Source of the DNA: Giardia intestinalis
Taxonomy: Eukaryota
Direction: 5' to 3' (one strand)
Assembly: GCA_000002435.2 (NCBI GenBank)
Contig: CM018793.1
DNA: 64,000 nt
The stretch's first letter is position 1. The number at the start of each line of letters is the position of its first letter. Under the pieces are notes generated by a model. The model did no database searches. It was given only the letters and a program-made list of their open reading frames with translations, and was not told the DNA's origin. Shown one piece after another: positions 1,058 through 29,473 of the stretch. A program made the translations under genes and the position numbers.

Positions 1058-1494
1058 TTTTCATGGTTTCGAAATTTCTCTTCTTTGTTAGCAAAAATTT
1101 GCACCTTGTCTCCAAACCATTAACATTCTCAGTACACTACTGCCTGAAGGCCGGTAGTGTTGCCCAACCTAAAGGTTTTACTGTGTCAATGGATCTAACT
1201 GCCATGTGGAACAAGCTATGTACCCCGTTGCCTATACATTAGGACCAGACAGATGCAGTCTACATTTAGCTAAAATCGTAGACAGTCCGACTATTGTTAA
1301 TTTGAGGCGAACTTTCTTAGTCTGGAACCCCCATTAACTAAGATAATTAACATGTACTGCGCTTGTGAAAATGGTTTCCTCGCCTGCATCTGTCTAGCGG
1401 CCTATTGCGCCCACCAGCTCCAACCTCCTGGGCATCCTACCATTTACTCTATATCTCAGATGTTTTCTTTCTCTTCTGAAAGGAAATTAGAAGG

Positions 1495-4400: not shown

Positions 4401-5145
4401 CGGAGGCAGAGGTGATGTGGTTACGAAGAAGAGTCTCAGGGGCTGTATACGGTCTTGCTCCGACAAAAGCGTTTCCAGATCGCAGAACGTCCTTGCAGGG
4501 GCCAAAGCATGTGATGACGACGCGCTTCTTGTCTTCGCTGATAAGGATGCTGGCAGGCCTGAGGTCCCGGTGCACGATTCCACAGACGGTGCTTCCATTG
4601 GAATTTGTCATCTGGATGCCATGGAGATAGGCGAGGGCATCGGCGACCTGCTGCATGACAGAGAAGATCATTTCGTCGGAAACGTAAACATCCATCCGTT
4701 TGTGCTCAGTGATGAACCTATCAAGAGAACTGCTGTAGCGGTCCATGGTCACGTAGACAAGGCACCCGTCCTCAATGACCTGGTGGCATCTGAGGACCCC
4801 CGGATGCGAGAGTCTAAGGAGAGCAGCCAGCTCAGACTTGAAAATGCTGACGATACCCTCGTCTTGGTCGTCAATCTGGATCTCTTTTATAGCAAAATTA
4901 GGGTAGTCTTTAATAGAGTAAACAGCGCTGGAGGATCCCCTGCCAAGCAGGACATCTATGCACTTGTAAGCCTCGTTGGCTAGGAGCTTTGGTGCAGCGG
5001 AGCCCTCCACGGCAGAAGCGGACATCCGATCGTCCTCGCTAACAATAGTGGTTTTTGGCCAATCCACGGCGACTGGATTGGATGGACGATCAGGAGCTGG
5101 GTTGAGGACCGCCCCACGGCACAGAAGCAGCGGGCGGATGCCCAC
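1495..5145 (-). CDS. Nek-family kinase-like protein with coiled-coil and about 20 ankyrin repeats; kinase domain probably inactive (DFG is CFG)
   Basis: The 1216-aa ORF has an N-terminal kinase fold: G-loop LGRGSSSAVY, beta3 Lys in FAIKEI, catalytic loop HRDLRPAS, CFG replacing DFG, and YTAPE. This is followed by a coiled-coil stretch and a long array of 33-aa ankyrin repeats (TALM.AA..GH...V.LL). The architecture is typical of Giardia Nek/21.1 proteins. Confidence 0.85.
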   Translation of the reverse strand: MGIRPLLLCRGAVLNPAPDRPSNPVAVDWPKTTIVSEDDRMSASAVEGSAAPKLLANEAYKCIDVLLGRGSSSAVYSIKDYPNFAIKEIQIDDQDEGIVSIFKSELAALLRLSHPGVLRCHQVIEDGCLVYVTMDRYSSSLDRFITEHKRMDVYVSDEMIFSVMQQVADALAYLHGIQMTNSNGSTVCGIVHRDLRPASILISEDKKRVVITCFGPCKDVLRSGNAFVGARPYTAPETLLRNHITSASDIWALGVIIYELATLKRPNFTRTGDPKSTFISGWRPDLGDITNSVMKCILEKIFVLDPGERPTAKELCDLLQASDASATKRNPWIMMLENALDKANARIASFEQNLRTEARDLEQQFTRTFKSPQNSCAQVPAPPTSTHGLVNITALSSLPRSILHFSWTPLMCAAADGDIEAVKEHLSDKDKRNNNDETALIIAARAGHEGIVELLDPTDDKGVTALMRAVDRNDVDTVKALIPLQKRKRTAGEAETDGLRMTKGTALMRAAAHGHTGMVKLLVEHECRMKDECGKTALMRAAQGNNLECVKILLHEEAGMTQSSGWTALMYAAYSNSIECAALLVKKEAEMQNKNGRSALMIAVFNNSVDCVDILLDHEGGMQDKDGWSALMHAVCNNKLECAMLLLEKERCMQDNDGWTALMCAARNNHLECTRLLLEEESGMQTNNGETALIMAAEKGHAGCVRLLLEREGCMYDKSGRTGLMAAASNNNLECARLLFEKEGGMKSSDGRTALMNAACNNSLECVKLLLKKEGRMQTNSGETALMIAAQKNCPECIKQLLKKEGNMQDNDGGSALMWAAYNGNPECVKLLLMMEKCIKDNSDMTALMWAASCNEQECAQLLVQHESDASGWTTLIYAAICNNIDDVRDSLHEVGRQDIGGKTALMYAAAYGHVEIVRLLVKKEGCMEDNCGRTALMSAAENNHPQCVEVLLEKEKGMQDDDGWTALMCAATNNNGECIRLLLKKEARMQDRSGMTALMHAAENNSINAIRIILKHEKEMKSKQDRNALYYALKNEHLKAAKIIMPHEAPTNGEGVTALMRAAEKGDIEGVELLLPFQARRNTGCVELDGWEIYEGTALMIAAAYGYTELVKLLVKYEGGMRSGSGRTALMGAAFNNYPKCVELLLDLEGGIKDSFGWTALIYAVSNGSIDAVRLLAERERGIRDHDGISALEYADAYDFLDIKLILSGDISSSE

Positions 5146-5165
5146 TGAGTACTATTCATTGGCGC

Positions 5166-5172
5166 ATTTACT
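5166..5172 (-). terminator. Putative Giardia polyadenylation signal AGTAAAT (AGTRAAY consensus) 13 nt downstream of the VSP stop codon
   Basis: The minus-strand sequence after the TAG stop (5185-5187) reads ATGTACTTAGATAGTAAATGCG. AGTAAAT matches the Giardia AGTPuAAPy motif at the expected distance. Confidence 0.4.
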
Positions 5173-5184
5173 ATCTAAGTACAT

Positions 5185-8100
5185 CTACGCTTTGCCTCTG
5201 CATAGGAACCACCAACACAAGAAGCCAACAAGACCACCTACAATAACTATCACAGCCACGGCGATGCCTGCAATGGCGCCGGTAGAAAGGCCACTCTTAT
5301 TGACGCTTCCGCCGTTGTCAGTGCCATCCGTCTTGACGTAGCAGATGACAGAGCCACCATCGCCGCCAGCTGGAGGAGCACAGCTTACGCAATCTTTAAC
5401 TCCAGTGATAGGCTTATTACCGTTAGGATCGTTTGTGTCGCATCTTACACATTTGGTTCCAACCTGATAATATCCTACAACGCAAGATGAACATGTGTTT
5501 GCATCGTTTGCACTAGTGCACGTTTTGCAAGCGGAATCACACAAAGGGCATACTCCAGCCGCACTAGGCTGAAGACTATTGGCGCACGTCTCGCACTTGT
5601 CGCCCTGACTGGCTAGCGTGCATATCTGTATGCCAGGTTGTCTGTCAGTCTTATAGCAGCCGTTGTCCTGGCGGAAGTACCCACTGGCACACGTAGTGCA
5701 CCCTCCCTTGCCATCTTTCACCTTGCACGCAGCTGCGCGGGCATTGTCTGCTGTACAGACCCCGTTGACGGGGACCTCCGTGGATGTGCTGCACTTCGAG
5801 CAATACTTTGTCCCTCCGATGGTGGCTCCGCAGGTCTCGCATCCGCTAGCTCCACTCTGGGGCTTGCACCCGTCCACGCAAGTACCGCTTGATGGACTGT
5901 TCTCATCCGTGTATTTGAGCATCTTCCCAGCAGGACAGGCCGTACACTTATCAGCACCCTCACCCTTACACTCTGCGCACGCATCGTTGCACCTCTTGCA
6001 TGTCTTTTTGCCACTATCGTCTCCGTAGTAGCCCTTGAGGGTCGTGCAGTCAGATACGCACTGACTAGTTGGGGTGAGGTAATCGCCGTCATTACATTCA
6101 GTGCAGGCCTCGTTCTCGGCCTTCGGGTTTGTGCAGTCCCTGCAGTTGGGCGTGTTGCACTTCCTCTCGACGCACTGGCTCCCGCTCAGAACGTAGGCGG
6201 GGTCGCAGCCAGTGCAGGCCTCGTTCTCGGCCTTCGGGTTTGTGCAGTCCCTGCAGTTGGGCGTGTTGCACTTCCTCTCGACGCACTGGCTCCCGCTCAG
6301 AACGTAGGCGGGGTCGCAGCCAGTGCAGGCCTCGTTCTCGGCCTTCGGGTTTGTGCAGTCCCTGCAGTTGGGCGTGTTGCACTTCCTCTCGACGCACTGG
6401 CTCCCGCTCAGAACGTAGGCGGGGTCGCAGCCAGTGCAGGCCTCGTTCTCGGCCTTCGGGTTTGTGCAGTCCCTGCAGTTGGGCGTGTTGCACTTCCTCT
6501 CGACGCACTGGCTCCCGCTCAGAACGTAGGCGGGGTCGCAGCCAGTGCAGGCCTCGTTCTCGGCCTTCGGGTTTGTGCAGTCCCTGCAGTTGGGCGTGTT
6601 GCACTTCCTCTCGACGCACTGGCTCCCGCTCAGAACGTAGGCGGGGTCGCAGCCAGTGCAGGCCTCGTTCTCGGCCTTCGGGTTTGTGCAGTCCCTGCAG
6701 TTGGGCGTGTTGCACTTCCTCTCGACGCACTGGCTCCCGCTCAGAACGTAGGCGGGGTCGCAGCCAGTGCAGGCCTCGTTCTCGGCCTTCGGGTTTGTGC
6801 AGTCCCTGCAGTTGGGCGTGTTGCACTTCCTCTCGACGCACTGGCTCCCGCTCAGAACGTAGGCGGGGTCGCAGCCAGTGCAGGCCTCGTTCTCGGCCTT
6901 CGGGTTTGTGCAGTCCCTGCAGTTGGGCGTGTTGCACTTCCTCTCGACGCACTGGCTCCCGCTCAGAACGTAGGCGGGGTCGCAGCCAGTGCAGGCCTCG
7001 TTCTCGGCCTTCGGGTTTGTGCAGTCCCTGCAGTTGGGCGTGTTGCACTTCCTCTCGACGCACTGGCTCCCGCTCAGAACGTAGGCGGGGTCGCAGCCAG
7101 TGCAGGCCTCGTTCTCGGCCTTCGGGTTTGTGCAGTCCCTGCAGTTGGGCGTGTTGCACTTCCTCTCGACGCACTGGCTCCCGCTCAGAACGTAGGCGGG
7201 GTCGCAGCCAGTGCAGGCCTCGTTCTCGGCCTTCGGGTTTGTGCAGTCCCTGCAGTTGGGCGTGTTGCACTTCCTCTCGACGCACTGGCTCCCGCTCAGA
7301 ACGTAGGCGGGGTCGCAGCCAGTGCAGGCCTCGTTCTCGGCCTTCGGGTTTGTGCAGTCCCTGCAGTTGGGCGTGTTGCACTTCCTCTCGACGCACTGGC
7401 TCCCGCTCAGAACGTAGGCGGGGTCGCAGCCAGTGCAGGCCTCGTTCTCGGCCTTCGGGTTTGTGCAGTCCCTGCAGTTGGGCGTGTTGCACTTCCTCTC
7501 GACGCACTGGCTCCCGCTCAGAACGTAGGCGGGGTCGCAGCCAGTGCAGGCCTCGTTCTCGGCCTTCGGGTTTGTGCAGTCCCTGCAGTTGGGCGTGTTG
7601 CACTTCCTCTCGACGCACTGGCTCCCGCTCAGAACGTAGGCGGGGTCGCAGCCAGTGCAGGCCTCGTTCTCGGCCTTCGGGTTTGTGCAGTCCCTGCAGT
7701 TGGGCGTGTTGCACTTCCTCTCGACGCACTGGCTCCCGCTCAGAACGTAGGCGGGGTCGCAGCCAGTGCAGGCCTCGTTCTCGGCCTTCGGGTTTGTGCA
7801 GTCCCTGCAGTTGGGCGTGTTGCACTTCCTCTCGACGCACTGGCTCCCGCTCAGAACGTAGGCGGGGTCGCAGCCAGTGCAGGCCTCGTTCTCGGCCTTC
7901 GGGTTTGTGCAGTCCCTGCAGTTGGGCGTGTTGCACTTCCTCTCGACGCACTGGCTCCCGCTCAGAACGTAGGCGGGGTCGCAGCCAGTGCAGGCCTCGT
8001 TCTCGGCCTTCGGGTTTGTGCAGTCCCTGCAGTTGGGCGTGTTGCACTTCCTCTCGACGCACTGGCTCCCGCTCAGAACGTAGGCGGGGTCGCAGCCAGT

Positions 8101-8451
8101 GCAGGCCTCGTTCTCGGCCTTCGGGTTTGTGCAGTCCCTGCAGTTGGGCGTGTTGCACTTCCTCTCGACGCACTGGCTCCCGCTCAGAACGTAGGCGGGG
8201 TCGCAGCCAGTGCAGGCCTCGTTCTCGGCCTTCGGGTTTGTGCAGTCCCTGCAGTTGGGCGTGTTGCACTTCCTCTCGACGCACTGGCTCCCGCTCAGAA
8301 CGTAGGCGGGGTCGCAGCCAGTGCAGGCCTCGTTCTCGGCCTTCGGGTTTGTGCAGTCCCTGCAGTTGGGCGTGTTGCACTTTTCGCTGCCGTTCTGCCC
8401 GCTGCGCTTTGCCAGCACTGTTACACAAACTAGGAGAAATCCTACCAACAT
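5185..8451 (-). CDS. Variant-specific surface protein (VSP) with about 21 tandem 37-aa Cys-rich repeats
   Basis: The 1088-aa ORF has an N-terminal signal peptide (MLVGFLLVCVTVLA) and very high Cys content dominated by CXXC motifs. The C-terminal hydrophobic TM helix is followed by the invariant VSP tail CRGKA. The repeat unit is CNTPNCRDCTNPKAENEACTGCDPAYVLSGSQCVERK. Confidence 0.9.
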   Translation of the reverse strand: MLVGFLLVCVTVLAKRSGQNGSEKCNTPNCRDCTNPKAENEACTGCDPAYVLSGSQCVERKCNTPNCRDCTNPKAENEACTGCDPAYVLSGSQCVERKCNTPNCRDCTNPKAENEACTGCDPAYVLSGSQCVERKCNTPNCRDCTNPKAENEACTGCDPAYVLSGSQCVERKCNTPNCRDCTNPKAENEACTGCDPAYVLSGSQCVERKCNTPNCRDCTNPKAENEACTGCDPAYVLSGSQCVERKCNTPNCRDCTNPKAENEACTGCDPAYVLSGSQCVERKCNTPNCRDCTNPKAENEACTGCDPAYVLSGSQCVERKCNTPNCRDCTNPKAENEACTGCDPAYVLSGSQCVERKCNTPNCRDCTNPKAENEACTGCDPAYVLSGSQCVERKCNTPNCRDCTNPKAENEACTGCDPAYVLSGSQCVERKCNTPNCRDCTNPKAENEACTGCDPAYVLSGSQCVERKCNTPNCRDCTNPKAENEACTGCDPAYVLSGSQCVERKCNTPNCRDCTNPKAENEACTGCDPAYVLSGSQCVERKCNTPNCRDCTNPKAENEACTGCDPAYVLSGSQCVERKCNTPNCRDCTNPKAENEACTGCDPAYVLSGSQCVERKCNTPNCRDCTNPKAENEACTGCDPAYVLSGSQCVERKCNTPNCRDCTNPKAENEACTGCDPAYVLSGSQCVERKCNTPNCRDCTNPKAENEACTGCDPAYVLSGSQCVERKCNTPNCRDCTNPKAENEACTGCDPAYVLSGSQCVERKCNTPNCRDCTNPKAENEACTECNDGDYLTPTSQCVSDCTTLKGYYGDDSGKKTCKRCNDACAECKGEGADKCTACPAGKMLKYTDENSPSSGTCVDGCKPQSGASGCETCGATIGGTKYCSKCSTSTEVPVNGVCTADNARAAACKVKDGKGGCTTCASGYFRQDNGCYKTDRQPGIQICTLASQGDKCETCANSLQPSAAGVCPLCDSACKTCTSANDANTCSSCVVGYYQVGTKCVRCDTNDPNGNKPITGVKDCVSCAPPAGGDGGSVICYVKTDGTDNGGSVNKSGLSTGAIAGIAVAVIVIVGGLVGFLCWWFLCRGKA
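6097..8392. repeat. Tandem array of a 111-bp unit, about 20.7 copies, apparently 100% identical, inside the VSP coding region
   Basis: A period of 111 nt was measured directly (the ggtcgcagcc landmark recurs at 6201 and 6312). The array is bounded by divergence at about 6097 and about 8392. It produces long artefactual ORFs in all other frames on both strands. Confidence 0.95.
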
Positions 8452-8667
8452 TAGCCGGGTTCGTATGCCACTGCTCTTCTGTCAGGCTGATGTGTTGCTG
8501 CGAGCAGTGAGAGACAGTCACTTTTGCTCCCTTAACCAGTTGGACCGGAGAAGGACAAGATAGGAGCACACCCACCGGAGGCCAACTGATAGTGCGGTTC
8601 CCCCTGGCTTCCATAGGAACAGGACCAGTAAGGACCAGACTCAGATCGCACCTCTCTTGTGGAGTGA

Positions 8668-9852
8668 TTGTTCAGGGTGCACTCCTGTACATTGCTGTCA
8701 CTGTATCACTGGGCCCACCTGCAGGTGCGCTCAGAGGCCCCACGGGCAAGCCGCGCCCACTTCCCAACCACCGCGGAGGGTGTCCTGGGAGACGCTAGTA
8801 ACAGTGCAGTTAGCAGCTTTGCAGGGCCGATGGGCGTTTGGGGAGCGTGCTCAGCAGGGGCCCTCAGCGTTATCTACTCTCTCAGGGGATGCCCCTACCT
8901 CGTCGTGAGAGAGATCCGGCTTGATGGCCTGGATCAGCACAGTGTAGATGCCATTCGGCGCAGGCTGACCGCTCTTCTAGGCACCCTTCACCCAGACGTT
9001 CTCAAATACCACCAGGTACTTACAGACGGCAACACGATCCTTGTTGTTACAGACCGCTGCTGTGGAGACCTCCGGCAGTTCATCACCGACTACAGGGACA
9101 TTCACGAACCTATTCCCAGCAAGCTGATGCTCTCCCTTCTGGGGCAGCTGGCTGGCGCCCTTGCCCACCTCCACGGGTTCAGCAGAGGTGCCCACAGCGG
9201 CCTGCCCTCTAGCGTTGTCCTCGAGCCCGACAACGTCCTGTTCGCTGGGGACGGGCGGCGTGTTGTTCTTGCAGACTTCGGGTTCTGCGAGGGCATATCG
9301 AGCGGAGCTGCGAAGGCTGGCGACCCCGCGTACATGGCCCCCGAGACACTCCTCTGCGGTGACATGACCCAAGCATCCGACGTCTGGAGCCTCGGGGCCA
9401 TCGCATACGAGCTCGCCACCCTGAGGAAGCCGGACTTCCTAGGGGACAGGGATCCTGCAGAGGTCTTCGTCGATGGGTGGAGGCCGGACCTGAGCGGTAT
9501 CGCAGACGACCTCGCAAGGAGCGTCCTTGAAAGAATGCTCGTCCTCGATCCCGCCGAGAGGCCGACTGCCAGAGAGCTCGCCCGTCTGCTTCAGATGGCC
9601 AGTGATTCTACTGATGAACAGGAGGCCCAAGACACAAGGCTAAAGGAGGTGCGCGCAGCCTTTGTAGAAGTCTTGAACGCTCATCTGCATTCGCTATTGC
9701 CTTGGGGGAACCACAAGGTCCTTATCTGTCAGAACTGGACGATATCCGACCTTCTGATTTCAGATTCTGGGTCTCAGCTGGTAAACGAGCGAGAGACTGC
9801 CGGCCTGGGGCGGCGGCGGCTCGCGTGGAGGACCTGTTCAGACAACAGCTGA
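8668..9852 (+). CDS. Nek-like pseudokinase domain protein (paralogous to the kinase domain of 1495..5145); possibly a fragment of a disrupted Nek-ankyrin gene
   Basis: The 394-aa ORF carries ADFGF and MAPE motifs. Its C-lobe is clearly homologous to gene 1495..5145 (RPDFLGDRDPAEVFVDGWRPDL...LVLDPAERPTARELARLLQ versus RPNFTRTGDPKSTFISGWRPDL...FVLDPGERPTAKELCDLLQ). The beta3 Lys is replaced (LVVREI) and the HRD motif is absent (LEPDNV). Confidence 0.55.
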   Translation: MFRVHSCTLLSLYHWAHLQVRSEAPRASRAHFPTTAEGVLGDASNSAVSSFAGPMGVWGACSAGALSVIYSLRGCPYLVVREIRLDGLDQHSVDAIRRRLTALLGTLHPDVLKYHQVLTDGNTILVVTDRCCGDLRQFITDYRDIHEPIPSKLMLSLLGQLAGALAHLHGFSRGAHSGLPSSVVLEPDNVLFAGDGRRVVLADFGFCEGISSGAAKAGDPAYMAPETLLCGDMTQASDVWSLGAIAYELATLRKPDFLGDRDPAEVFVDGWRPDLSGIADDLARSVLERMLVLDPAERPTARELARLLQMASDSTDEQEAQDTRLKEVRAAFVEVLNAHLHSLLPWGNHKVLICQNWTISDLLISDSGSQLVNERETAGLGRRRLAWRTCSDNS

Positions 9853-10068
9853 CAAACCAACCAGAGGAAGCAGAACGAATTCTTTTGTTCACAGCTTGCC
9901 TGACGCCACGGCCGAAGGTCACCCCACTGCGTCTTGTTACACACGTAGGGGCGACGGAAGGAATCCAAGGCGTGCAGTCCGCTTATGATGCGCTATCTGG
10001 ATGCGCTGCAAGAGGCCCAGGAATTGCAGGCGTGCTGCCACACGGGCTCTATGTGACCCGGAGTAAAA

Positions 10069-10971
10069 ATGTTGTCTATGGATGACTTAGATCAATTCCT
10101 TCAGGAGTGCGACTGCGCCTTACTCCTCATGTCTGAGAAGGACGCAAGTGAAGAGGGCGCAGGAAACCCAACTGAGTCTTCACAAACAGATGATGAAGGC
10201 AGCGTGGACGAGGACGGCGTCACCACACTTATGGAGGCAGCTAAGAGGAACGACGTGAAGGCGGTGAAGCGCTACATCCCTTATCAGGCAAGGATGGTGG
10301 CGAGGTTTGTTACGGCGGGGAGAGTAGAGATATACGATGGGACGGCCCTGATGGTCGCTGCGGTGCTTGGACACACCAGAGTGGTGAAGCTGCTGATGAG
10401 GTGCGAGGGCGGCATGAGGAGCAGTAATGAATGGACAGCCCTCATGTGGGCGGCACTTTTTGGCCGCACCGAGGTCGTGAGACTGCTCCTGGATGTTGAG
10501 GGAGGCATGCAGAAAAACAGAGGTTTCACTGCCCTCGTGCTTGCAGCAGAATGTGATCATCTGGACTGTGTCAAGTTGCTACTGGAGAAGGAGAGGGACA
10601 TAAGTGGCGTACTTGCCATCCATATGGCTAATAGATGGAATCACTCCGAGGTAGCATCTTTTCTCCAAAGTAAGGGTATTGTAGATCCATACTTACAGAT
10701 GCAGCCCAGGAAGCTTGTGAGTGAACTCGCCTACTTGCTGATCATATCACAATGTTTACCCTGTTTCACTGAGATTAGTTTGCTAGCTGCTGTCCAAGTA
10801 AATCCCCCATGCGAGTCACCGCCCTGGGCAAGCGGGTACCTCCCGCCCCTGCATCGGTTGAGATCCAGAATCCGAAATCTGAGATCGGATGTAGCGATTC
10901 CGGTGGGAGAAGAAGAAGGAACTTTGCTCTGCCTCTCGGGAGTCCCTGCCGCTCCTCGCGGTGCCCCCTAG
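10069..10971 (+). CDS. Ankyrin-repeat protein (21.1-like), possibly the truncated or degenerate remainder of a Nek-ankyrin gene
   Basis: The 300-aa ORF is in the same reading frame as 8668..9852. Its N-terminal 200 aa hold about 4 clear ankyrin repeats (TTLMEAAKRNDVKAVKRY..., TALMVAAVLGHTRVVKLLM, TALMWAALFGRTEVVRLLL, TALVLAAECDHLDCVKLLL). The C-terminal 100 aa are low-complexity and probably not genuine. Confidence 0.45.
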   Translation: MLSMDDLDQFLQECDCALLLMSEKDASEEGAGNPTESSQTDDEGSVDEDGVTTLMEAAKRNDVKAVKRYIPYQARMVARFVTAGRVEIYDGTALMVAAVLGHTRVVKLLMRCEGGMRSSNEWTALMWAALFGRTEVVRLLLDVEGGMQKNRGFTALVLAAECDHLDCVKLLLEKERDISGVLAIHMANRWNHSEVASFLQSKGIVDPYLQMQPRKLVSELAYLLIISQCLPCFTEISLLAAVQVNPPCESPPWASGYLPPLHRLRSRIRNLRSDVAIPVGEEEGTLLCLSGVPAAPRGAP

Positions 10972-12790
10972 GACTCCCCCTTCCTTTGGCTAGCTTGGGT
11001 CAGCTCCGTCTGACATTTATTGAGCACCTGCTGTCTCGGGTCTTGCGTCAGTCGCGGCGATCTGGTCTCCACGTGGCCCGGGGCCCTGGTGTTCCGTGAC
11101 GAAGATCGCGCCCCACGACCCCGGGTGTCTACCCCGTTTCTTGGGGTGCCTCTTCGTCTTCTCATGAAGCGATCATCTGTCCCGAGCATGATCGGAGGGT
11201 GCGCTCCTTGTATGCCTCTATCTTGGGGTTGTGGTACGCATTCGTGGATGCCAGCGGAGTACTCCCATGCGTTGTGTCGGGGGAGAAGTATGGCCCTCTG
11301 CTCATGGATCACAGTGCACTCTTGTGGGTGGTCCGTCATCCAGTACGAGACCGCGTCGACGCTCACCCTGTGCAGTGTGTCTGGCTCAGTGACGTGTGGG
11401 CTGGTCCATCTGCACTGCACAGCACACCTGGGGGAATGATTCGGTCTGTCGAGGCATCAGTCCAGGGCCACCTCTCTGAGAGGCGTCGTCCGAAGCATCA
11501 GAAGCGATCAGGACCGGTTCACCGCTTGGTCGTCTCTCTACAACCGGCGCCTGTCCACTCAAGGATGTCAGGCACTGCCAGTTGCTGCAGCAGACACCCG
11601 GCAGGTGGCCCAGGTCACCACTCTTCGGTACGGTCAGGATCAATCCGCCTCTGTTAGCCAAGCACCCCAGGAGCCCCATCTCTTGTCGAGGGACTCACAC
11701 GGGTCACGTGTGGGTCCATCTCGACAAGCGGGGCGAGTGATTGGTGCCATCACTGGCTTGGGCCCTCCGTTGCCCTGGGAGCTCCTTGAGACCGGCCAGG
11801 AAGGAGGCCCCCTGCCCCTCAGTGCTCCTACACTTGTCAATGTTGACTGTCAAACCATATCGTTTCGCTAGGGCTGCCACCTCTGTGGCTATCCCCGTCG
11901 CGTCATTGTTGCTACTATGGAAGATGGGTGTGTCGTCGGCATGGGCAGTGAGTGGAGTATCTCCTTCAGCTCCTGGTGAGCAGGTTCTGTCCCCCGCAGC
12001 ACAGAAGCATGCTCAGGGCCCCGAGGGACCGAGTCCAGGGGTGCAGCGTGTTACAGCCGGAGGAAGGCCTCGACGCAACTCCTCGGACGAGGCACACTCG
12101 CCTGGCAGAGGCCGTCTACTGTTAGGGTGCTCGTTATGTCGAGCGAGGCCACCGTGGCCATCAGTCTGCATCTCCCTGCGCCATGCGAACACCACCATGT
12201 GCAGTCAGTAGAACGCAGTCTGCTCGATCTCGAGGAAGGCTAGTGTCTGGGTCTCCAGGGGACTCGGGACTACCTTGTGGAGCGCATCATGATCGTCCAC
12301 CGATTGCACTTGCCCTGCCTCGTCCTTGGGAAGAGGGAAGAACAAGAGTTCTTCTCCCGCCGGAGTCGCTTGACACTCACCTTCGAACTCTGGATCTGGA
12401 TCTCGGTTGGTGAACGAGCGAGGGACTTGCCCAGAGAGGCGATGACTCGCATGGGAAGATCACTCAGGTAACAGCACTGATAACAAAGTAAATTATCACG
12501 CCAGAGATGCAATTGATTCGCCTAGTTCAAAAGCTTCAGGGGCAGCGTGTGCGGTTCGAGTTGAAAGCTGGCGGAATGATTGAGGGAACTGTCGCCCTGG
12601 TTGATGCGACCTTTGTTGTGCACCTTTCTCAAGCGTCCTACACTCCGCGGGGCGCAACGACCGCTATCTGTCATCCATTCGTCGTGCTACGTGGAGCAGC
12701 TATCTGTAGCCTCTCTCTTCCGGGCACGTTTGACACGGACACGCACCTTTGCGCCTTACGGACAGAGTACAATCGGGGTCCAAAAAATAG

Positions 12791-13159
12791 ATGAGCCAGG
12801 CCCGTTACGTCGGAATATTCCGGTGCAACAAGTGCAGTACTCCACTCTTTCTCGAAGAACATGTGCAACAACATGAGTCTGTCGCTAAGGTTGCGTTCCG
12901 GCGGCAACAGGTGCCCGAGGCCCGGTGCTCGTCGTATTTCCTTCCGAAGCTCCGGTGGATGGGGGACCTCCTGGGGAATCAGGGCAACCTCGCATGCCCC
13001 CAGTGCGCCCAGCGGGTGGGAGGCTGGTGCTGGAGCGGACGGGCATGCACGTGCGGCGGGCTCGTCGTCCCATACATCGCCGTCCACCGCAACAAGGTCG
13101 ACCGCGTCATGACAGAGGTCTCCGCCGGGGACGCACCTACTGCCGCAGGAGCCCCATGA
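12791..13159 (+). CDS. Small Yippee/CULT-like zinc-binding protein (two CXXC pairs, second followed by VGGW)
   Basis: The 122-aa ORF has CNKC (aa 12-15) and CPQCAQRVGGWCW (aa 69-81). Spacing and the C-x2-C-x3-[LV]G-W motif resemble the Yippee family. It lies in a GC-rich region crowded with alternative ORFs, so coding status is uncertain. Confidence 0.4.
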   Translation: MSQARYVGIFRCNKCSTPLFLEEHVQQHESVAKVAFRRQQVPEARCSSYFLPKLRWMGDLLGNQGNLACPQCAQRVGGWCWSGRACTCGGLVVPYIAVHRNKVDRVMTEVSAGDAPTAAGAP

Positions 13160-13165
13160 CGTGAC
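13081..13165. repeat. Copy A of an approximately 85-bp dispersed duplicate (3' end of the Yippee-like ORF)
   Basis: cgtccaccgcaacaaggtcgaccgcgtcatgacagaggtctccgccggggacgcacctactgccgcaggagccccatgacgtg is about 88% identical to 27043..27127. Confidence 0.6.
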
Positions 13166-13388
13166 GTAACATAGCCTGCTGTGCATCCAACAGCAAACGG
13201 TCCAGCCTGCCTGTTGGAGTTTCTGGACCCGAGTCTTTTAGAAGCAATCCATTGAAAGTGAAAAGTGAACATGTGACTTTCAGTTGCCTCATCTATGCAA
13301 CAAGTAGATCATTAAAGCGCCAATGGGTGGTGGCTCACACAGCGTCCAACTTGATGCATCTGTGCAGGCAAGGCAACCCTTTAAAGAT

Positions 13389-14426
13389 CTATTTACTAGA
13401 CTCTTCTGCAAGATACTGCTTGTCTAACTGACCCATATAGAGTTCCATTGCTGTCGGGCGGCCCGGGACATGAAACCGCTTGCAAATCTCAATATCCTGT
13501 AGGTCTGTCGCCTCAAGTAATACTAGATCCCCGCTGCTAAAGCCTATTACATAATGACAGGCCTTGCAATCCTTGATAAACTTGAGCCTCCGAGAATCCT
13601 TTCCCAACTCCGGATCTCCGTCGCCTATTTCAAACTTTGCTATCACATTAAGCTGGTCTCCATCCCGCTGGAACACGCGTAATATTCCGTTCTCATCCCC
13701 CACAAGGATGACCGGAATGGTGTAGTCATCTCCCTTGGCCTTGTAGGGCCAGATACCAAAAGTGGCCGAAGAAACCTTATGACCAATCCCCGGAATAGTC
13801 CACACCGCCTTCGTAGGACTATCGCCAACAGTCAGGACCTGAATCCCGCTGGGGTGAACAATCAAAAGGTCCTGCTTGTTCCATTCGTGATGAAAACATG
13901 GATGGTCTGTGGTAATCCGTGCGGTTGAATTGCCAGTCGTTAAATCCCATATAACCAGGCCGTCCTTATCAAGGGAACTAGCACAGAAATTACTGGGATG
14001 GACTGCCACGGATGATATAGGGTGGCGGTGTCTACGAAGAGTCAGCATAGGTTCCCAATCACGGACACGCCAGAGGAAGAGCATTTTATCATCGCCGCCA
14101 GTGATGACATACTCCTCACTTCCGTCTGAGCTCTTAGACACAAGGCTAGCAGAACACCGTACAGACGATGTGTGCTTGTCGAGGACCGCCACATGCTTGT
14201 GTCGTCGTAGGTTATAGATCCTGATCATACAGTCGTTTGAGGTTGCAGTTAACAGCCCATTTGTCGTAAATGAAAGACTCCTGATAGCCTGACTAGAATC
14301 ATCAACAACAAACGTGCTCTGAAGAGAATATTCATCTTCGTCATCTTTCGACAACAGGAACCCGTAGAGCTTCCCATCATACGTTCCTACGACCAGTTCA
14401 CATGGGGTAAATGGCATGGAGTGCAA
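13389..14426 (-). CDS. WD40-repeat protein
   Basis: The 345-aa ORF shows repeated beta-strand/WD-like modules (YVITGGDDKMLFLWRV, ISSVAVHP..., DGLVIWDLTTG, GDENGILRVFQ). It sits 102 bp from a divergent gene. Confidence 0.7.
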   Translation of the reverse strand: MHSMPFTPCELVVGTYDGKLYGFLLSKDDEDEYSLQSTFVVDDSSQAIRSLSFTTNGLLTATSNDCMIRIYNLRRHKHVAVLDKHTSSVRCSASLVSKSSDGSEEYVITGGDDKMLFLWRVRDWEPMLTLRRHRHPISSVAVHPSNFCASSLDKDGLVIWDLTTGNSTARITTDHPCFHHEWNKQDLLIVHPSGIQVLTVGDSPTKAVWTIPGIGHKVSSATFGIWPYKAKGDDYTIPVILVGDENGILRVFQRDGDQLNVIAKFEIGDGDPELGKDSRRLKFIKDCKACHYVIGFSSGDLVLLEATDLQDIEICKRFHVPGRPTAMELYMGQLDKQYLAEESSK

Positions 14427-14528
14427 CTTTTTATTAACTTAAAATCTTACATTGAGACAGACATGATATCCAGCATTCTGACAATATAATGTCCGTGCCT
14501 GGGTTTTTACCTACCTCACTACTAGAGT
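14427..14528. promoter_or_regulatory. Short AT-rich bidirectional promoter region between divergent WD40 and LCAT-like genes
   Basis: 102 bp separate two divergent start codons, with AT-rich tracts (ttttattaacttaaaatc) immediately upstream of each ATG, as is typical for Giardia. Confidence 0.4.
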
Positions 14529-17156: not shown

Positions 17157-17173
17157 GCTAGGCCTGGTCAGAT

Positions 17174-18382: not shown

Positions 18383-18466
18383 TAGAAGAGATTTGCAGGA
18401 ATTAGAAATTCATACTACTAAGGTACTAGTTGCTAACCCCTGGTGCTCTAGACTTATAAAATTACG
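18383..18466. promoter_or_regulatory. Bidirectional AT-rich promoter region (RING gene / ITPK gene)
   Basis: An 84-bp divergent intergenic region with an AT-rich sequence adjacent to both ATGs. Confidence 0.35.
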
Positions 18467-19489: not shown

Positions 19490-19511
19490 TTTTAATCTCG
19501 TAAATATAGTT

Positions 19512-27042: not shown

Positions 27043-27127
27043 CTACCGCAGCAAGATCGATCGCGTCATGACAGAGGTCTCCACCAGGGACGCACCTACT
27101 GCCGCAGGAGCTCCATGATGTGCCCGT
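27043..27127. repeat. Copy B of the approximately 85-bp dispersed duplicate, in an otherwise non-coding 780-bp region
   Basis: atctaccgcagcaagatcgatcgcgtcatgacagaggtctccaccagggacgcacctactgccgcaggagctccatgatgtg keeps the same reading frame and stop as copy A (...RVMTEVS.RDAPTAAGAP*). Confidence 0.6.
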
Positions 27128-28421
27128 ACACCCGATTACACACAACGACAAGCTTGCAAACAAAGCTGTTCCATTGCTCGGGTCCCGCTGCGGGGTGCAC
27201 GGGAGCGGCCCCATCGATGCTCGCCGTTCGATGATCGCCTTCGGGTGTTAGTATTATGTTCAGCTTCCGAAGCGCTTGTACATCGAGTACTGCTGAAGAG
27301 ACATAGAGGGGATTCAGAAGTAAAGGTTTCCGCTGGCCTGCGGTCTCAGTCTTATCCACCGTCAGCCCCAGCCCGTAGTGCTCACTAAGCATCTGACGGT
27401 TGCTGTGCATATTCAGTAGGTATCGACTGATCGTGATGGCACATGGGCACTCAAGCCCCAGGAAGATGTAGAGGTCGACAACGAAACCCAGTAGAGCCCC
27501 CAGCCCGAGGGAGAATGTATCCTTGTCTGCGCCCGTGAAGAGCTTCGCGTTCGCCGTCGGCTTCTCCCACACAAGTTCACAAACAGTCCTCCCTGCCCGC
27601 CGAAGTCCCCGGAGCTGGGGGTCTAGAGTCTGTTGAGAGACTGCCTGCAGGACAGACGTGGGAGCTCCGTCATGGTAGACTATAACTAATGGAGCAGGAA
27701 GAGCGGCAACTAGAATAGAGTAGAGCCTCGTAATGCGAACCCCTTCGGGTTCTGAGATTGCACCTTGGCGCGAAAACACAGAGCGATAGACGTCTCCAAA
27801 AGTTGCTTGATACAGCATCTGGATGCAGAGAGTCAGCTCTGCTAGCGCTGCATTAATGCCGTCCCTATTACGCAGGACTGGGAGGGCAGTACTAGGCGCA
27901 TCTGTAGCTTGAAGCGTGTCCCCAAGCTTCTCAGCATGAGCAGGATCTACTTGCAAAAGCGAGAACCCATTTACCGCAGATGCTGCTTCATTGAAGACAA
28001 ACAGTGGACGCATGCTCCCTTGCCGAGAGACACGCAGTTGGTGGCAATCATTGAGGCATGTAAAGGTGGGGATTTGTTTGTTGGGGTTCTGAAGTTTCAG
28101 CTGTTCCTCAAGCTCCTTGATCTTTTGCTCCTCTTCTTCTATCTCACTTTGTATATTGATAGAAGGAGCAGCGGCCTTCAAGCTTCCAGACAAGGCCCGC
28201 ATTCGCTTTCTACGCGCCATCTGCTTTTCAATGATGGCTGCGTCACGAGCATTCCGGTCCTTCTGCAGAAGAAGAGCCTGTCTAATTCGTTCATAACATG
28301 CCGAGCAAAGGAGGGAGACTGCTGTCAAATCAGGCATAGCTGGTAATGGTAATGCAGATGCAAGCGAGGAAGCGCAGTAATCTATTGGTTTAAAGTGAGA
28401 GTTACAGACGGAGCATAACAT
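27096..28421 (-). CDS. Hypothetical coiled-coil protein
   Basis: The track ORF is 27096..28496. Its first Met overlaps the divergent mevalonate kinase start by 49 bp. Met26 (MLCSVCNSHF, codon at 28419-28421) leaves a 26-bp AT-rich gap and is the more plausible start. The product has a KE-rich coiled-coil segment and no recognised domain. Confidence 0.5.
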   Translation of the reverse strand: MLCSVCNSHFKPIDYCASSLASALPLPAMPDLTAVSLLCSACYERIRQALLLQKDRNARDAAIIEKQMARRKRMRALSGSLKAAAPSINIQSEIEEEEQKIKELEEQLKLQNPNKQIPTFTCLNDCHQLRVSRQGSMRPLFVFNEAASAVNGFSLLQVDPAHAEKLGDTLQATDAPSTALPVLRNRDGINAALAELTLCIQMLYQATFGDVYRSVFSRQGAISEPEGVRITRLYSILVAALPAPLVIVYHDGAPTSVLQAVSQQTLDPQLRGLRRAGRTVCELVWEKPTANAKLFTGADKDTFSLGLGALLGFVVDLYIFLGLECPCAITISRYLLNMHSNRQMLSEHYGLGLTVDKTETAGQRKPLLLNPLYVSSAVLDVQALRKLNIILTPEGDHRTASIDGAAPVHPAAGPEQWNSFVCKLVVVCNRVYGHIMELLRQ

Positions 28422-28447
28422 GGCGACTTTTTTAAAGGGAAAAGGAA

Positions 28448-29473
28448 ATGCCTTCTTTGGGCCCGTGCCCCTTGGAGCTGTATGTACGGACCCCACTGAA
28501 AGCGATTCTCAGTGGTGAGCATTCGGTTGTCTACGGTCATCCCTGTATCGCTATGGCACTGGATTTGTACACAAGTGGGCATGCACGCGTAGCAAAAGAT
28601 CCCACTTGCCCGTCAAGCCTCCCTTTCCCTACACTTTTAGATATTAGAACAGGTGAGCGACTAGATCTTAGTAGTTCGATGACAGAAGCCATTCGCCTAA
28701 TTAACGAGGAGGTTCTTACTAGACTACCTACAATCAAACGGTCAGATGCTGCGTGTCATCACTGTGAATTTGTAGAAATCGCAGTCCATGGGTGGACTCT
28801 CGGTAAAGGACTAGGCTCTTCTGCAAGTATCCTTGTGACGCACACCGCCCTTCTCTTAGCCGCAAGTTCTAATTATTCTCCCTCCATGTTATTTGATATC
28901 GCCTTGCTGGGTGAGAGACATATACACGGAAGGACCACTGGCATGGATCTGAAGACCGTCATTTATGGGGGCATCCAGATCTACAGCCACGGTGCATTAT
29001 GCAACGCTAAGATATCTCCAGACATTTTCGCCGCTCGTATGATTCAAGTTCTTATTGCAGATTCTGGTATCGCAAAGTCCACAGCACAGGCCGTAGAGTT
29101 AGTAAGCCAAGGAGAAAACAACGACACGTTGGCACACATAGGAGAGACTTCGAAAGACCTCATTGAGCTGCTCTTGACTGCCAGTACCCCGGGTAAAATA
29201 AGCAATGACTCATTCTACTTAACGCTCTCCGCTCTTGTTCAGCGAAACCACGATCTTTTATGCTCATTGGGTGTTAGTGTGCCAGAAACAGAGCGCTCAA
29301 AGGAACTGCTCTACCACATGGGGTGCTTCACTGCAAAGCTCACGGGTGCTGGGTTAGGTGGCTGCTGCATCGGTTTCCGAACGCAGCATAACCTAGTAGT
29401 GGACAGCCCTGACAGACACGTAATAGCAGTCGGTATAGGAGAGGGTTTATTGATGACTGACACACCCCAGTAG
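28448..29473 (+). CDS. Mevalonate kinase (GHMP kinase family)
   Basis: The 341-aa ORF has GHMP motif 1 (LKAILSGEHSVVYGHPCIAMALD), motif 2 (LGKGLGSSASILVT) and motif 3 (KLTGAGLGGCCIGF). The size fits MVK. Confidence 0.8.
   Translation: MPSLGPCPLELYVRTPLKAILSGEHSVVYGHPCIAMALDLYTSGHARVAKDPTCPSSLPFPTLLDIRTGERLDLSSSMTEAIRLINEEVLTRLPTIKRSDAACHHCEFVEIAVHGWTLGKGLGSSASILVTHTALLLAASSNYSPSMLFDIALLGERHIHGRTTGMDLKTVIYGGIQIYSHGALCNAKISPDIFAARMIQVLIADSGIAKSTAQAVELVSQGENNDTLAHIGETSKDLIELLLTASTPGKISNDSFYLTLSALVQRNHDLLCSLGVSVPETERSKELLYHMGCFTAKLTGAGLGGCCIGFRTQHNLVVDSPDRHVIAVGIGEGLLMTDTPQ

Follow-up and report, generated by a model that had tools for sequence, protein, structure and literature searches.

An interval of the Giardia intestinalis WB genome best explained as a patchwork of a Nek kinase fragment, an ankyrin module and a dead retrotransposon

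The window analysed here, a stretch of 64,000 nucleotides from Giardia intestinalis WB, contains an open reading frame (ORF) for a Nek-type kinase (8668..9852) and one for an ankyrin repeat protein (10069..10971), followed by a GC-rich stretch devoid of long ORFs. The initial annotation of this arrangement was confirmed: both ORFs are present in one common reading frame, and translation of 8668..12801 in that frame showed four in-frame stops between them. The interval is very probably a patchwork of three unrelated pieces (a kinase fragment, an ankyrin module and a dead retrotransposon) rather than one broken gene, and would represent the edge of a variable, VSP-associated island of a WB chromosome. 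What is directly observed in support of this reading is the set of homologies with their breakpoints, the presence of the arm copies, the start of synteny at 12471 and the relaxed constraint on both ORFs. Such a patchwork is ordinary where surface-antigen genes of Giardia are surrounded by variable DNA: synteny breaks carry RT, Nek, 21.1 and VSP genes, the RT and VSP genes being GC-rich (PMC3091692), and RT remnants occur between VSP pairs, in VSP regions that are gene-poor (PMC7000408). The features of the interval are the following.

8762..9677, plus strand: Nek-GL4 pseudokinase homology block, truncated at both ends (blastn and tblastn)
8830..9852, plus strand: 'Kinase, NEK' ORF, 340 aa, GL50803_137676 = GK143 (KAE8306129.1 / XP_001708477.1; exact-sequence look-up)
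9720..9870, minus strand: third arm copy, between the kinase block and the ankyrin ORF (blastn, arm alignment)
10069..10971, plus strand: 'Ankyrin repeat protein 1' ORF, 300 aa (exact look-up; Pfam Ank_2)
10751..10915, plus strand: arm at the 3' end of the element, whose sense is minus (78% identity to the P15 L009 arms 5205-5384 and 9409-9546)
10751..12470, minus strand: whole dead non-LTR retrotransposon copy, probably of GilD/Genie-2 type, consisting of arm, RT-CCHC-endonuclease remnant and arm (collinear blastn to P15)
10996..12333, minus strand: decayed remnant of coding sequence, equivalent to aa ~537-1086 in the 1086-aa composite P15 element protein (tblastn)
11086..11357, minus strand: remnant of the restriction-like endonuclease part, which follows RT and the CCHC knuckle (tblastn, composite aa 945-1056, summed E 4.8e-9)
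11797..11955, minus strand: RT motif 5-7 block, PLTAHADDTPIF...AKRYGLTVNIDKCRST (Pfam RVT_1, translation)
12349..12470, minus strand: arm at the 5' side of the element, its outer ~45 nt cut off at the synteny breakpoint 12470/12471 (inverted match, alignment)
12471..12794, plus strand: start of the conserved core block, with 36 nt of 5' flank and the Sm-like snRNP gene 12507..12794 (P15 synteny, annotation)

The ORF-less stretch had been placed at 10971..12790. The absence of any ORF above 156 aa stood (the longest with a start codon in 10971-12506 is 11741..12211), while the right-hand limit did not: the stretch ends at 12506 and measures ~1.5 kb, since 12507..12794 is an annotated gene coding for an Sm-like snRNP protein (KAE8306131.1; LSM domain, E 1.1e-5). 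Exact-sequence look-up showed that the kinase and ankyrin ORFs and the two genes that follow encode the consecutive WB proteins KAE8306129-132, and annotation look-up found no WB protein annotated in 10971-12507. Synteny with P15 (assemblage E) begins exactly at 12471, with 12471-22817 of the window matching P15 L007 5121-15444 at 87.6% identity. The GC content of the ORF-less stretch is 0.60-0.62, compared with 0.41-0.53 in the core genes downstream, and its longest stop-to-stop run (185 codons) falls within the ordinary range for random sequence: in 500 first-order Markov simulations of the same composition the median was 159 codons, and 25% of the runs reached 185.

The ORF-less stretch is a dead, internally deleted, R2-like non-LTR retrotransposon lying on the minus strand. 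In blastn comparisons, 10751..12470 was collinear with a full-length P15 element (L009 7612-9546, 65-76% identity) and with L006 10646-12606, ~2.2 kb of the 5' half being deleted. The 'Reverse transcriptase' proteins of P15 matched only 11195-12333 in tblastn, on the minus strand and in frames -1/-2/-3, with E down to 6e-26. On the composite P15 protein, aa 537-739 map to 12333-11797 (E 1.5e-19), aa 945-968 to 11357-11295, aa 983-1017 to 11287-11195 and aa 1026-1056 to 11172-11086; the last aligned residue is aa 1056, at 11086, and the end of the remnant near 10996 is extrapolated. The remnant is distributed over three reading frames and shows at least six in-frame stops as well as internal deletions. 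Its RT block includes a HADD box (the equivalent of YADD) at 11932-11943, and the minus-strand translation of 11821-11955 matches Pfam RVT_1 at profile positions 148-192 with E 5.9e-4; homologous P15 copies match the same profile positions with E 1.4e-5 and 4.9e-19, the latter value (69 bits) being that of a P15 sequence which is 75% identical in nucleotides to the window copy and has all the RT motifs. In the translations, visual comparison paired a CCHC-like string, SPRCAVQCRWTSPHVTEPDTLHRV, with SPKCVLCGARMDANHIVNCSQMHLYRV of P15. Full-length members of the family in P15 comprise N-terminal C2H2 zinc fingers, RT, CCHC and restriction-like endonuclease, with inverted arms, and the family protein matches solved R2 proteins. 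Because the window copy has lost its ~2.2 kb and has accumulated frameshifts, stops and smaller deletions, what is left is a 60%-GC stretch with chance ORFs only, which would have no present function.

The initial annotation had also considered a non-coding RNA locus in the GC-rich stretch. In one version, the inverted arms would give rise to double-stranded RNA and feed the RNAi pathway implicated in VSP control; indeed, the arms lie ~1.4 kb apart and beside a VSP, sequence identity between assemblages A and E is 65-78%, and small RNAs from Giardia retroposons were reportedly described by Ullu et al. in 2005. However, no Rfam family matches the stretch, even at E<=1, transposon copies with a common ancestor account for the conservation between assemblages, and arms that are only 70% identical here are poor material for a long duplex. 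A functional locus of this kind is therefore unsupported and very improbable.

The arms at this locus are roughly 110-190 nt long. The segments 10806-10914 and 12349-12455 form an inverted repeat (70% over 114 columns, E 2e-6), and the full-length P15 element is flanked by 193-nt arms which are 93% identical (L009 5193-5384 / 9335-9527). Logan contigs from four runs begin at 12405-12417, within the 5'-side arm. When the arm 10751-10940 was compared with the window by blastn, it also matched 9744-9860 on the minus strand (68.6% over 118 columns, E 4e-4). By itself this third copy is weak; 11 arm copies, 9720-9870 among them, align with a conserved core, and P15 has counterparts of the third copy at L006 7184-7265 and 13740-13821. 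The third copy covers most of the gap with in-frame stops and, because it sits between the kinase and ankyrin ORFs, the tails of both ORFs read into arm sequence; the arm at the 3' end of the element overlaps the ankyrin ORF from 10751 on. Arms also adjoin ankyrin genes that have no neighbouring RT body, and they may be part of the ankyrin module or of a preferred target site instead of the element.

The kinase ORF encodes 394 aa from a TTG and 340 aa from the ATG at 8830. The Pfam protein kinase match begins at position 29 of the 263 of the profile, both for ORF 8668..9852 (E 5.6e-21) and for the 340-aa product (E 3.5e-21); the beta1 strand and the Gly-loop of the N-lobe are absent, and K72 and D166 are missing. 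By blastn, the kinase block is 91% identical to DH L005 252-1171 and 84% to P15 L006 3944-4776, and both matches stop at 9676/9677. The block corresponds to residues ~23-298 of the intact 486-aa paralogue P0002 (88% identity of aa 23-298 over 8851-9678 by tblastn, without continuation), and its homology to the intact kinase-ankyrin paralogues P0002, P0004 and P0005, 88% in this block, likewise ends at codon ~298 (9678). From there on, ~58 aa of the ORF have no Nek homology and enter the arm repeat. The fragment is also frame-shifted near 8840 with respect to its relatives P0003 and P0004, and has neither of the targeting modules, coiled-coil and ankyrin, that are found in its family. Additional file 1 of Manning 2011 lists GK143 as a Nek-GL4 of orthology class 'C' and as 'Dead Nek - missing K72, D166', with neither coils nor ankyrin repeats and with a SAGE maximum of 0.0054% of tags; GK143 was not flagged as a pseudogene, while rampant duplication and pseudogenisation were reported for GL4 Neks (PMC3218828). 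The truncated N-lobe, the missing K72 and D166 and the loss of homology at codon ~298 bear out the earlier view of the ORF as the remnant of a Nek-family gene, here of a fast-turnover subfamily. The fragment is most likely non-functional; as GL50803_137676, the truncated copy is annotated with its first ATG (8830) as the start and with the chance stop met first (9852) as the end.

The ankyrin ORF gave a clear Ank_2 match (E 3.3e-51, aa ~49-183), its repeats being encoded at ~10222-10683. As had been noticed, it leaves ankyrin sequence after about 200 aa: homology stops near aa 205-225, the last ~75-95 aa match nothing ankyrin-like, and the last ~73 codons (10751-10971) come from the retroelement arm and its 3' flank. 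Its ATG and the A-rich context are kept in two P15 copies (L006 7197-8057 and, on the reverse complement, 13808-12876; 73-78% in nucleotides), neither of which has a kinase upstream. Both P15 copies carry a 1-nt indel just past the ATG, which shifts the frame, so the ankyrin module is itself decaying in at least one lineage. The module (~9720-10915) is probably an ankyrin-only gene, ARP-1, with its own conserved start and bracketed by two inverted ~150-190-nt repeats; whether the ORF in the window is functional is evenly balanced.

These results bear on the proposal that a single ancestral gene for a Nek kinase with ankyrin repeats decayed where it stands, nonsense mutations having produced the two ORFs and the 1.8 kb being its degenerated, ankyrin-rich 3' part. 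The common frame would fit this proposal, as would the order of kinase, coiled-coil and ankyrin in the single ORFs (486-586 aa) of intact paralogues, the collinearity of the P15 Nek P0049 across 9328-10680 (34% identity) and the split of a DH paralogue into two ORFs, one for a kinase (334 aa) and one for ankyrin sequence (108 aa). However, identity to P0002, P0004 and P0005 drops from 88% in the kinase block to only 32-38% in the ankyrin block, though in the paralogues the ankyrin halves are as conserved as the kinase halves. In addition, the ~40-aa coiled-coil linker was not found in any frame, the gap is filled by the arm repeat, and the ankyrin ATG is kept in the kinase-less P15 copies. As to the 1.8 kb, tblastn with intact Neks revealed no Nek or ankyrin homology past 10686 in any frame, and the stretch is RT/endonuclease-derived, on the opposite strand. 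Decay of a single gene in place is largely refuted, and we regard it as improbable. The two frames would rather be unrelated pieces joined by rearrangement, each annotated ORF running out of its homologous part and through arm-derived DNA up to a stop, and their common frame would be a coincidence (1 in 3).

Sequencing or assembly indels, suggested to have broken one gene of ~1300 aa spanning 8668-12790, are refuted for practical purposes. A frame-3 ORF (9702..10085) does bridge the gap, and two compensating indels could in principle join both ORFs, but this bridging frame has no Nek homology and lies inside the arm repeat. The 340-aa and 300-aa products are identical in the WB annotations of 2007 (XP_) and 2020 (KAE), the 2020 assembly being PacBio-based (PMC7000408), and the WB paralogue GK148 has the same N-terminus, 'MGVWGACSAG', as GK143. 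Moreover, the downstream 1.5 kb contains 8-26 stops per frame and is RT-derived on the other strand, leaving no ~1300-aa Nek homology to be restored.

It is possible, if rather doubtful, that the ORFs are two genuine, separately expressed genes, i.e. a pseudokinase scaffold and ARP-1 with transposon-derived C-terminal tails, beside an unrelated dead transposon. Both were annotated as proteins in 2007 and 2020, and most Giardia Neks are catalytically dead yet apparently expressed (PMC3218828). Because dN/dS is below 1 for both ORFs (0.38-0.42 in the kinase block, 0.31-0.40 in the ankyrin block), low-level SAGE tags are recorded for the kinase ORF, and the ankyrin ATG and its A-rich context are kept in P15, one of the ORFs, or both, may be expressed and of use. 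However, these dN/dS values are 5-10 times those of three neighbouring core genes (0.03-0.08), and a proteomic record was not found. The incomplete N-lobe of the kinase, its frame shift near 8840, its missing targeting modules and the frame-shifted P15 copies of the ankyrin module also argue against two genes.

For the patchwork we propose the following history. Retrotransposition, followed by decay, may have been succeeded by segmental duplication of an arm-ankyrin-arm-element unit, common to assemblage E; recombination would then have brought a Nek fragment to one end of the unit and the LSM promoter to the opposite end.

Within the Nek-GL4 subfamily, GK143 is a curated, dead, strain-specific class 'C' member of the WB cluster GK140/143/144/145/148, several members of which carry stops (Manning 2011, PMC3218828). 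Unlike GK145 (P0002; 486 aa, four ankyrin repeats), it has no coiled-coil/ankyrin part, and its C-terminal ~58 aa are unrelated and arm-derived. The ORF 10069..10971 resembles ankyrin-only ARP-1 genes in being ankyrin-only, and was so named under the 2020 naming rule (PMC7000408). In contrast to them, about a quarter of it is read from transposon arm DNA, and both homologues of the module in P15 have a frame shift close to their start.

As to the retroelement, the family that best fits is GilD of the WB literature, which we take to be the Genie 2 of Burke, Malik, Rich and Eickbush (2002), on the basis of exclusion, location, state of decay and the inverted repeats that Genie 2 copies are said to carry. 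GilD was reportedly described by Arkhipova and Morrison in 2001 as a 'dead' non-LTR retrotransposon family of Giardia WB. Like GilD, the window copy has RT and a C-terminal CCHC/endonuclease region, is decayed by frameshifts, stops and internal deletions, sits at a chromosome-internal position next to a VSP gene, in a region with few genes, is high in G+C and has inverted repeats on both sides; no contradicting feature was found in it, the likeness being one of description. It differs in having no N-terminal half (zinc fingers, RT motif 0) and in its outer arm, clipped at the synteny breakpoint 36 nt upstream of the ATG of a core gene. GilM and GilT, presumably Genie 1 and 1A, are telomere-associated and potentially active, and share with the window copy the diplomonad R2-like lineage and the general architecture. 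GilM is 5.5 kb long, with an intact RT ORF, and forms subtelomeric arrays (PMC7000408), whereas the window has one dead copy, at an internal site. Furthermore, the window copy matches the GilD-like family of P15 with E 1e-16 to 6e-26, while other Giardia RTs reach 6e-5 at best and only in the YADD block; for P0066, a protein of the P15 family, identity to other RT proteins of Giardia and diplomonads is 25-33%. Finally, the P15 relatives share with R2 and other RLE non-LTR retrotransposons the N-terminal C2H2 fingers, the central RT and the C-terminal Cys/His knuckle with endonuclease, but there is little sequence identity (E ~1e-6, confined to the RT core), the Giardia family has no rDNA target, and flanking inverted arms are not an R2 feature.

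Exact-sequence look-up identified four consecutive proteins of the WB reference in this part of the window, all on one 4.02-Mb contig:

8830..9852, plus strand: 'Kinase, NEK', 340 aa (KAE8306129.1 / XP_001708477.1)
10069..10971, plus strand: 'Ankyrin repeat protein 1', 300 aa (KAE8306130.1 / XP_001708476.1)
12507..12794, plus strand: Sm-like snRNP gene (KAE8306131)
next after the Sm-like gene: DUSP12-like gene (KAE8306132)

No annotated protein was found in 10971-12507, and because the accessions KAE8306129-132 are consecutive, nothing is annotated as protein between these positions. The ORF layout described in the initial annotation was recovered: the kinase ORF (8668..9852, with 394 aa if read from a TTG and 340 aa if read from the ATG at 8830) and the ankyrin ORF (10069..10971, 300 aa) lie in a common reading frame, in which four stops were counted between them. 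It had also been suggested that sequencing indels might have split a single gene of about 1300 aa. This suggestion is contradicted by the kinase and ankyrin products, which are identical in the 2007 and 2020 WB annotations; the 2020 assembly is PacBio-based (PMC7000408).

The kinase ORF encodes a protein kinase domain (Pfam Pkinase, E 3.5e-21 to 5.6e-21), and its closest relatives are Giardia 'Kinase, NEK' proteins, with 84-88% identity. The Pfam match starts at position 29 of the 263 profile positions, and the beta1/Gly-loop part, present in the intact 486-aa GK145, is absent, so that the start of the N-lobe is missing. Among the catalytic residues, 'VVREI' replaces VAIK and 'LEPDN' replaces HRDxxxxN, while DFG is retained; the K72/D166/D184 set required of an active kinase is incomplete. 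In the kinome of Manning et al. (2011; PMC3218828), GL50803_137676 is GK143, a Nek-GL4 member of orthology class 'C', recorded as 'Dead Nek - missing K72, D166', with neither coils nor ankyrin repeats listed and a SAGE maximum of 0.0054% of tags; it was taken with the 394-aa upstream extension and carries no pseudogene flag. Pfam found no ankyrin repeats in either the 340- or the 394-aa form. Under the 2020 WB naming rule, NEK denotes a kinase domain plus ankyrin repeats in a single protein (PMC7000408), which does not describe this entry, as the ankyrin repeats belong to another ORF, whose ancestry is different.

In nucleotide comparisons, the kinase block extends over 8762-9677, with 91% identity to a locus of the DH isolate and 84% to a locus of the assemblage E isolate P15, and both matches terminate at 9676/9677. 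Two of the Nek relatives (P0003 and P0004) match 8795-8884 in another frame than the remainder of the block, which indicates an indel near 8840. The WB paralogue GK148 has the same 'MGVWGACSAG' start as the kinase ORF, and therefore a read error does not explain the damaged 5' end. The kinase ORF is a Nek remnant, and the GL50803_137676 entry would be better described as a gene fragment.

The initial annotation had read the two ORFs as a decaying pseudogene of one Nek-ankyrin family member, and proposed a tblastn search with intact Nek proteins to reveal frame-shifted homology. The Nek remnant stands; the single broken gene does not. The relatives of the kinase ORF include single-ORF kinase/coiled-coil/ankyrin proteins of 486-586 aa (P0002, which is GK145, P0004 and P0005). 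In tblastn, these match the window with 84-88% identity over 8851-9678, where the match ends abruptly; their ~40-aa coiled-coil linker has left no trace in any frame of the window, and their ankyrin halves reach only 32-38% identity over 10087-10686. Among the three proteins themselves, the ankyrin halves are conserved as well as the kinase halves.

The ankyrin ORF has its own affinities. Pfam matched ankyrin families alone, with no other domain (Ank_2, E 3.3e-51, repeats at aa ~49-183), and NCBI names the product ARP-1, as Xu et al. (2020; PMC7000408) named the ankyrin-only proteins of the WB reference. At the nucleotide level, ~9812-10740 matches two copies in the P15 locus L006 with 73-78% identity (7197-8057 and, reversed, 12876-13808), and neither copy has a kinase upstream. 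The ankyrin ATG and its A-rich context are conserved in the three-way alignment (GAGTAAAAATG in WB, AAATAAAAATG in P15). The 250 nt upstream contain 1-nt and 3-nt indels between the WB and P15 copies and therefore no conserved frame, and the P15 copies have a 1-nt deletion directly after the ATG. Taken together, the kinase and ankyrin ORFs probably have separate origins, rather than being halves of one gene.

The dN/dS ratio of the kinase block is 0.38-0.42 and that of the ankyrin block 0.31-0.40 (the DH-versus-P15 value was left out because the alignment was badly trimmed), as against 0.03-0.08 for three adjacent core genes compared with P15. Constraint on both blocks is relaxed, which alone is no proof of pseudogene status.

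Downstream of the ankyrin ORF, the initial annotation had pointed to a GC-rich stretch, 10971..12790, devoid of long ORFs. This holds for 10971-12506, where ORFs with a start codon indeed reach no more than 156 aa, but not beyond, because the ORF 12507..12794 is the real Sm-like snRNP gene. The longest stop-to-stop stretch in 10971-12506 is 185 codons; random sequence of the same composition gave a median of 159 codons, and 25% of the simulations reached the observed value. The GC content is 0.60-0.62, as against 0.41-0.53 in genes further right. A GC-rich non-coding RNA locus had been considered here, but Rfam covariance models gave no match, either at gathering thresholds in the whole window or at E<=1 in 9700-13400. 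A bacterial promoter/terminator scan of 9600-12600 gave the same counts as shuffled sequence, and is in any case irrelevant for Giardia. A VSP pseudogene was also considered as the source of the stretch, and was ruled out because tblastx found no similarity to the neighbouring VSP.

The stretch is almost certainly a dead reverse transcriptase (RT) element on the minus strand. While Pfam found nothing in the individual plus-strand ORFs of the 1.8 kb, stop-masked whole-frame translations gave a single Pfam match, to RVT_1 (11821-11955, minus strand, E 5.9e-4, profile positions 148-192), reading PLTAHADDTPIF...AKRYGLTVNIDKCRST, with a HADD box at 11932-11943(-). By itself this match is weak. Several P15 and DH segments, however, share 65-78% identity with the same DNA, and one of them, L006 1-1800(-), keeps readable RT motifs (SPGPSGL, LIPKDETGSKYRPIA, GVPQGDPLSMLLY and IAYADDILIF) and scores above the gathering cut-off for RVT_1 (E 4.9e-19, 69 bits). 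When the window's three minus frames were joined and used as query, a large protein search gave no matches, because decay is too deep for 5-residue words to be shared; with a stitched, better-preserved P15 copy as query, P15 proteins of 373-657 aa annotated as 'Reverse transcriptase' or 'Reverse transcriptase/endonuclease' were retrieved. Searched back against the whole window by tblastn, these proteins match only 11195-12333(-), in three frames, with E down to 6e-26.

The extent of the decay was measured against a 1086-aa composite of two P15 proteins, P0069 (N-terminal C2H2 zinc fingers and first RT half) and P0066 (the rest, from the second RT half through a Cys/His knuckle to an endonuclease-like C-terminus). 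The window copy corresponds to aa 537-1056 of the composite (12333 down to 11086) and contains at least six in-frame stops as well as deletions; its homology is scattered over three frames, and the copy lacks ~2.2 kb of the 5' half plus another ~90 nt. The region after the RT, which in RLE-type elements carries a Cys/His knuckle and a restriction-like endonuclease, is represented by aa 945-1056 of the composite at 11357-11086 (summed E 4.8e-9); no Pfam model recognized it, not even in the intact P15 protein, and a CCHC-like string in the window was recognized by eye. The RT core of P0066 matches solved R2 retrotransposon proteins, and its nearest long relatives are other RTs of Giardia, Spironucleus and Hexamita (25-33% identity), which indicates a diplomonad R2-like (RLE-type) non-LTR retrotransposon.

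P15 copies of the family are far better preserved than those of WB (L006 1-2820; L009 716-3735 and 6001-9176), with ORFs of 373-657 aa and a near full-length coding region of 3.2 kb. The 'dead' family may have been active more recently in the assemblage E lineage.

The remnant is enclosed by an inverted repeat, hereafter the arms, with 10806-10914 matching 12349-12455 (70% over 114 columns, E 2e-6). These gapped arms, only ~70% identical, were missed by a repeat-finding scan and recovered by blastn. The full-length P15 element of L009 (coding part 6001-9176, intact 657-aa first ORF) is likewise flanked by 193-nt inverted arms, 93% identical (5193-5384 / 9335-9527), and the arms of L006 are 119 nt long and 76% identical. 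In the window, the 5' arm directly abuts RT residue ~537; the ~2.2 kb must thus have been lost internally, and a simple 5'-truncated LINE insertion, in which the 5' arm would not be present, is ruled out. An alignment by eye had placed coding sequence of RT motif 0-1 in the 5' arm, and was dropped because tblastn did not support it.

An arm search detected a third copy in the window, at 9744-9860(-), and a conserved core is shared by all eleven aligned copies, which come from the window, the DH locus L005, L006 and L009. It follows that the gap 9678-10068 is mostly arm-derived or ankyrin 5' flank, and not a decayed Nek linker, and that both ORFs end in foreign DNA: arm or element DNA supplies the final ~58 codons of the kinase ORF (9678-9852) and the last ~73 of the ankyrin ORF (10751-10971). 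The latter accounts for the low-complexity tail of the ankyrin ORF previously noticed. For annotators, this means that neither the ~58 C-terminal residues of GL50803_137676 nor the final ~73 residues of ARP-1, being read from transposon-arm DNA, should be taken as protein features.

Arm-to-arm identity follows the preservation of the element, from 93% in L009 (5193-9527), with its intact 657-aa ORF, to 76% and 70% in the decayed copies of L006 (10606-12608) and the window (10751-12470). By analogy, this trend resembles LTR-style repeats that are identical at birth, or gene conversion between arms. The orientation of the element body relative to the adjacent ankyrin gene in the window and L006 is opposite to that in L009 (10069-12470 versus L009 4078-9527), as would be expected from an inversion through inverted-arm recombination.

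On its right side, the element borders directly on conserved genome. In P15, the orthologous Sm-like gene lies in locus L007, whose alignment with the window (87.6% identity) begins exactly at 12471 and extends to 22817; upstream of this P15 has an unrelated 1316-aa gene. The synteny breakpoint 12470/12471 removes the outermost ~45 nt of the arm and lies 36 nt before the Sm-like ATG, a tidy example of elements marking rearrangement sites. Four Logan contigs from independent runs, all with the Sm-like gene, start within the arm at 12405-12417, a spread of 12 nt, as expected where multi-copy sequence breaks an assembly graph; this clustering independently supports a multi-copy arm in WB-like genomes. 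As a further consequence of the breakpoint position, conserved DNA can contribute no more than 36 nt to the upstream control region of the Sm-like gene in WB, the remainder being transposon sequence.

The order arm/ankyrin/arm/body/arm is common to window 9720-12470 and P15 L006 10606-13821, which are non-orthologous sites. It is conceivable, but in our opinion highly improbable, that this unit is a composite cassette moving as a whole. Such a cassette would be duplicated or mobilized entire through its inverted arms and would seed new ARP/Nek/VSP neighbourhoods; recombination between arms could flip the internal segment, and arms that were transcribed might give double-stranded RNA near VSP genes. 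The conserved arm-ankyrin-arm-element cassette, with its possible role in rearrangement, is the only mildly novel residue of the analysis.

Neighbouring and related loci also deserve comment. The VSP gene at 5185..8451(-) encodes 1088 aa with a CRGKA tail and contains a 111-nt (37-aa) unit repeated in tandem 21 times; 19 of the copies are 100% identical, which implies very recent expansion or ongoing homogenization. Across the VSP, an intact 1177-aa Nek with a kinase domain and a long ankyrin array (1495-5025, minus strand) is inverted with respect to the kinase fragment; since the two share only ~41% identity, they are not a recent inverted duplication. An 81-nt copy of the DUSP12-like 3' end (27042-27122 versus 13083-13163, 90% identity) is present at a distance of 14 kb and overlaps the ORF 27096..28496(-) at its 3' end, and the same segment matches P15 L007 5733-5820. 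Finally, DH L005 (AHGT01000101) 282-6638 is a paralogous locus with the same components in another order: a split GL4 Nek (334-aa kinase ORF and 108-aa ankyrin ORF) is followed by a GilD-like remnant, part of which falls within a called 348-aa 'gene', and then by an arm and a VSP.

The observation of the initial annotation is therefore confirmed and its interpretation partly supported. The locus is best explained as the meeting point of three unrelated pieces within a variable island associated with VSPs, namely a truncated GL4 Nek fragment, an ARP-1 module and a dead GilD-type retrotransposon with inverted arms. What looked like a broken gene followed by ORF-less GC-rich DNA in the Giardia reference genome is thus explained by known biology (dead GilD-type elements beside VSPs, fast birth and death of GL4 Neks, and synteny breaks at such islands), and the value of the result is mainly one of clean-up.

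As to the family, the element is probably GilD, the 'dead' non-LTR family of WB, equated here with Genie 2; it was placed by described features, and none of the names of its relatives in the protein collection searched says GilD. Like GilD, it is a non-LTR RT (RVT_1 E 5.9e-4; P15 RT tblastn 6e-26) followed by a Cys/His knuckle and endonuclease region, and a dead copy, with frameshifts, stops and internal deletions. Its arms (70% identical, compared with 93% in L009 and 76% in L006) agree with the inverted repeats that Burke et al. in 2002 reportedly described for Genie 2 copies. The element (10751-12470) lies at a gene-poor internal site beside the VSP at 5185..8451(-), and the DH copy (L005 2693-4064) adjoins a VSP at 4164-6638; in the passage of Gladyshev and Arkhipova (2010; PMC2861651) that recounts Arkhipova and Morrison (2001), GilD copies are placed in gene-poor internal regions beside VSP genes. 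In contrast, the telomeric relatives GilM and GilT have an intact ORF and are arranged head to tail in arrays at chromosome ends (GilM is subtelomeric and 5.5 kb long; Xu et al., 2020; PMC7000408), whereas the window holds a single degenerate copy flanked by core genes syntenic with P15 for >10 kb. The surroundings are equally familiar: RT remnants (psi-RT) occur between diverging VSP pairs in gene-poor VSP surroundings (Xu et al., 2020; PMC7000408), and, according to Jerlström-Hultqvist et al. (2010; PMC3091692), WB-P15 synteny breaks hold RT/endonuclease sequences, Neks, 21.1 proteins and VSPs, while the RT and VSP genes have a high GC content. The kinase ORF, by its kinase domain and its curation as GK143, belongs with Nek-GL4. 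Each part of the locus has a published counterpart, and the locus is known in kind and ordinary.
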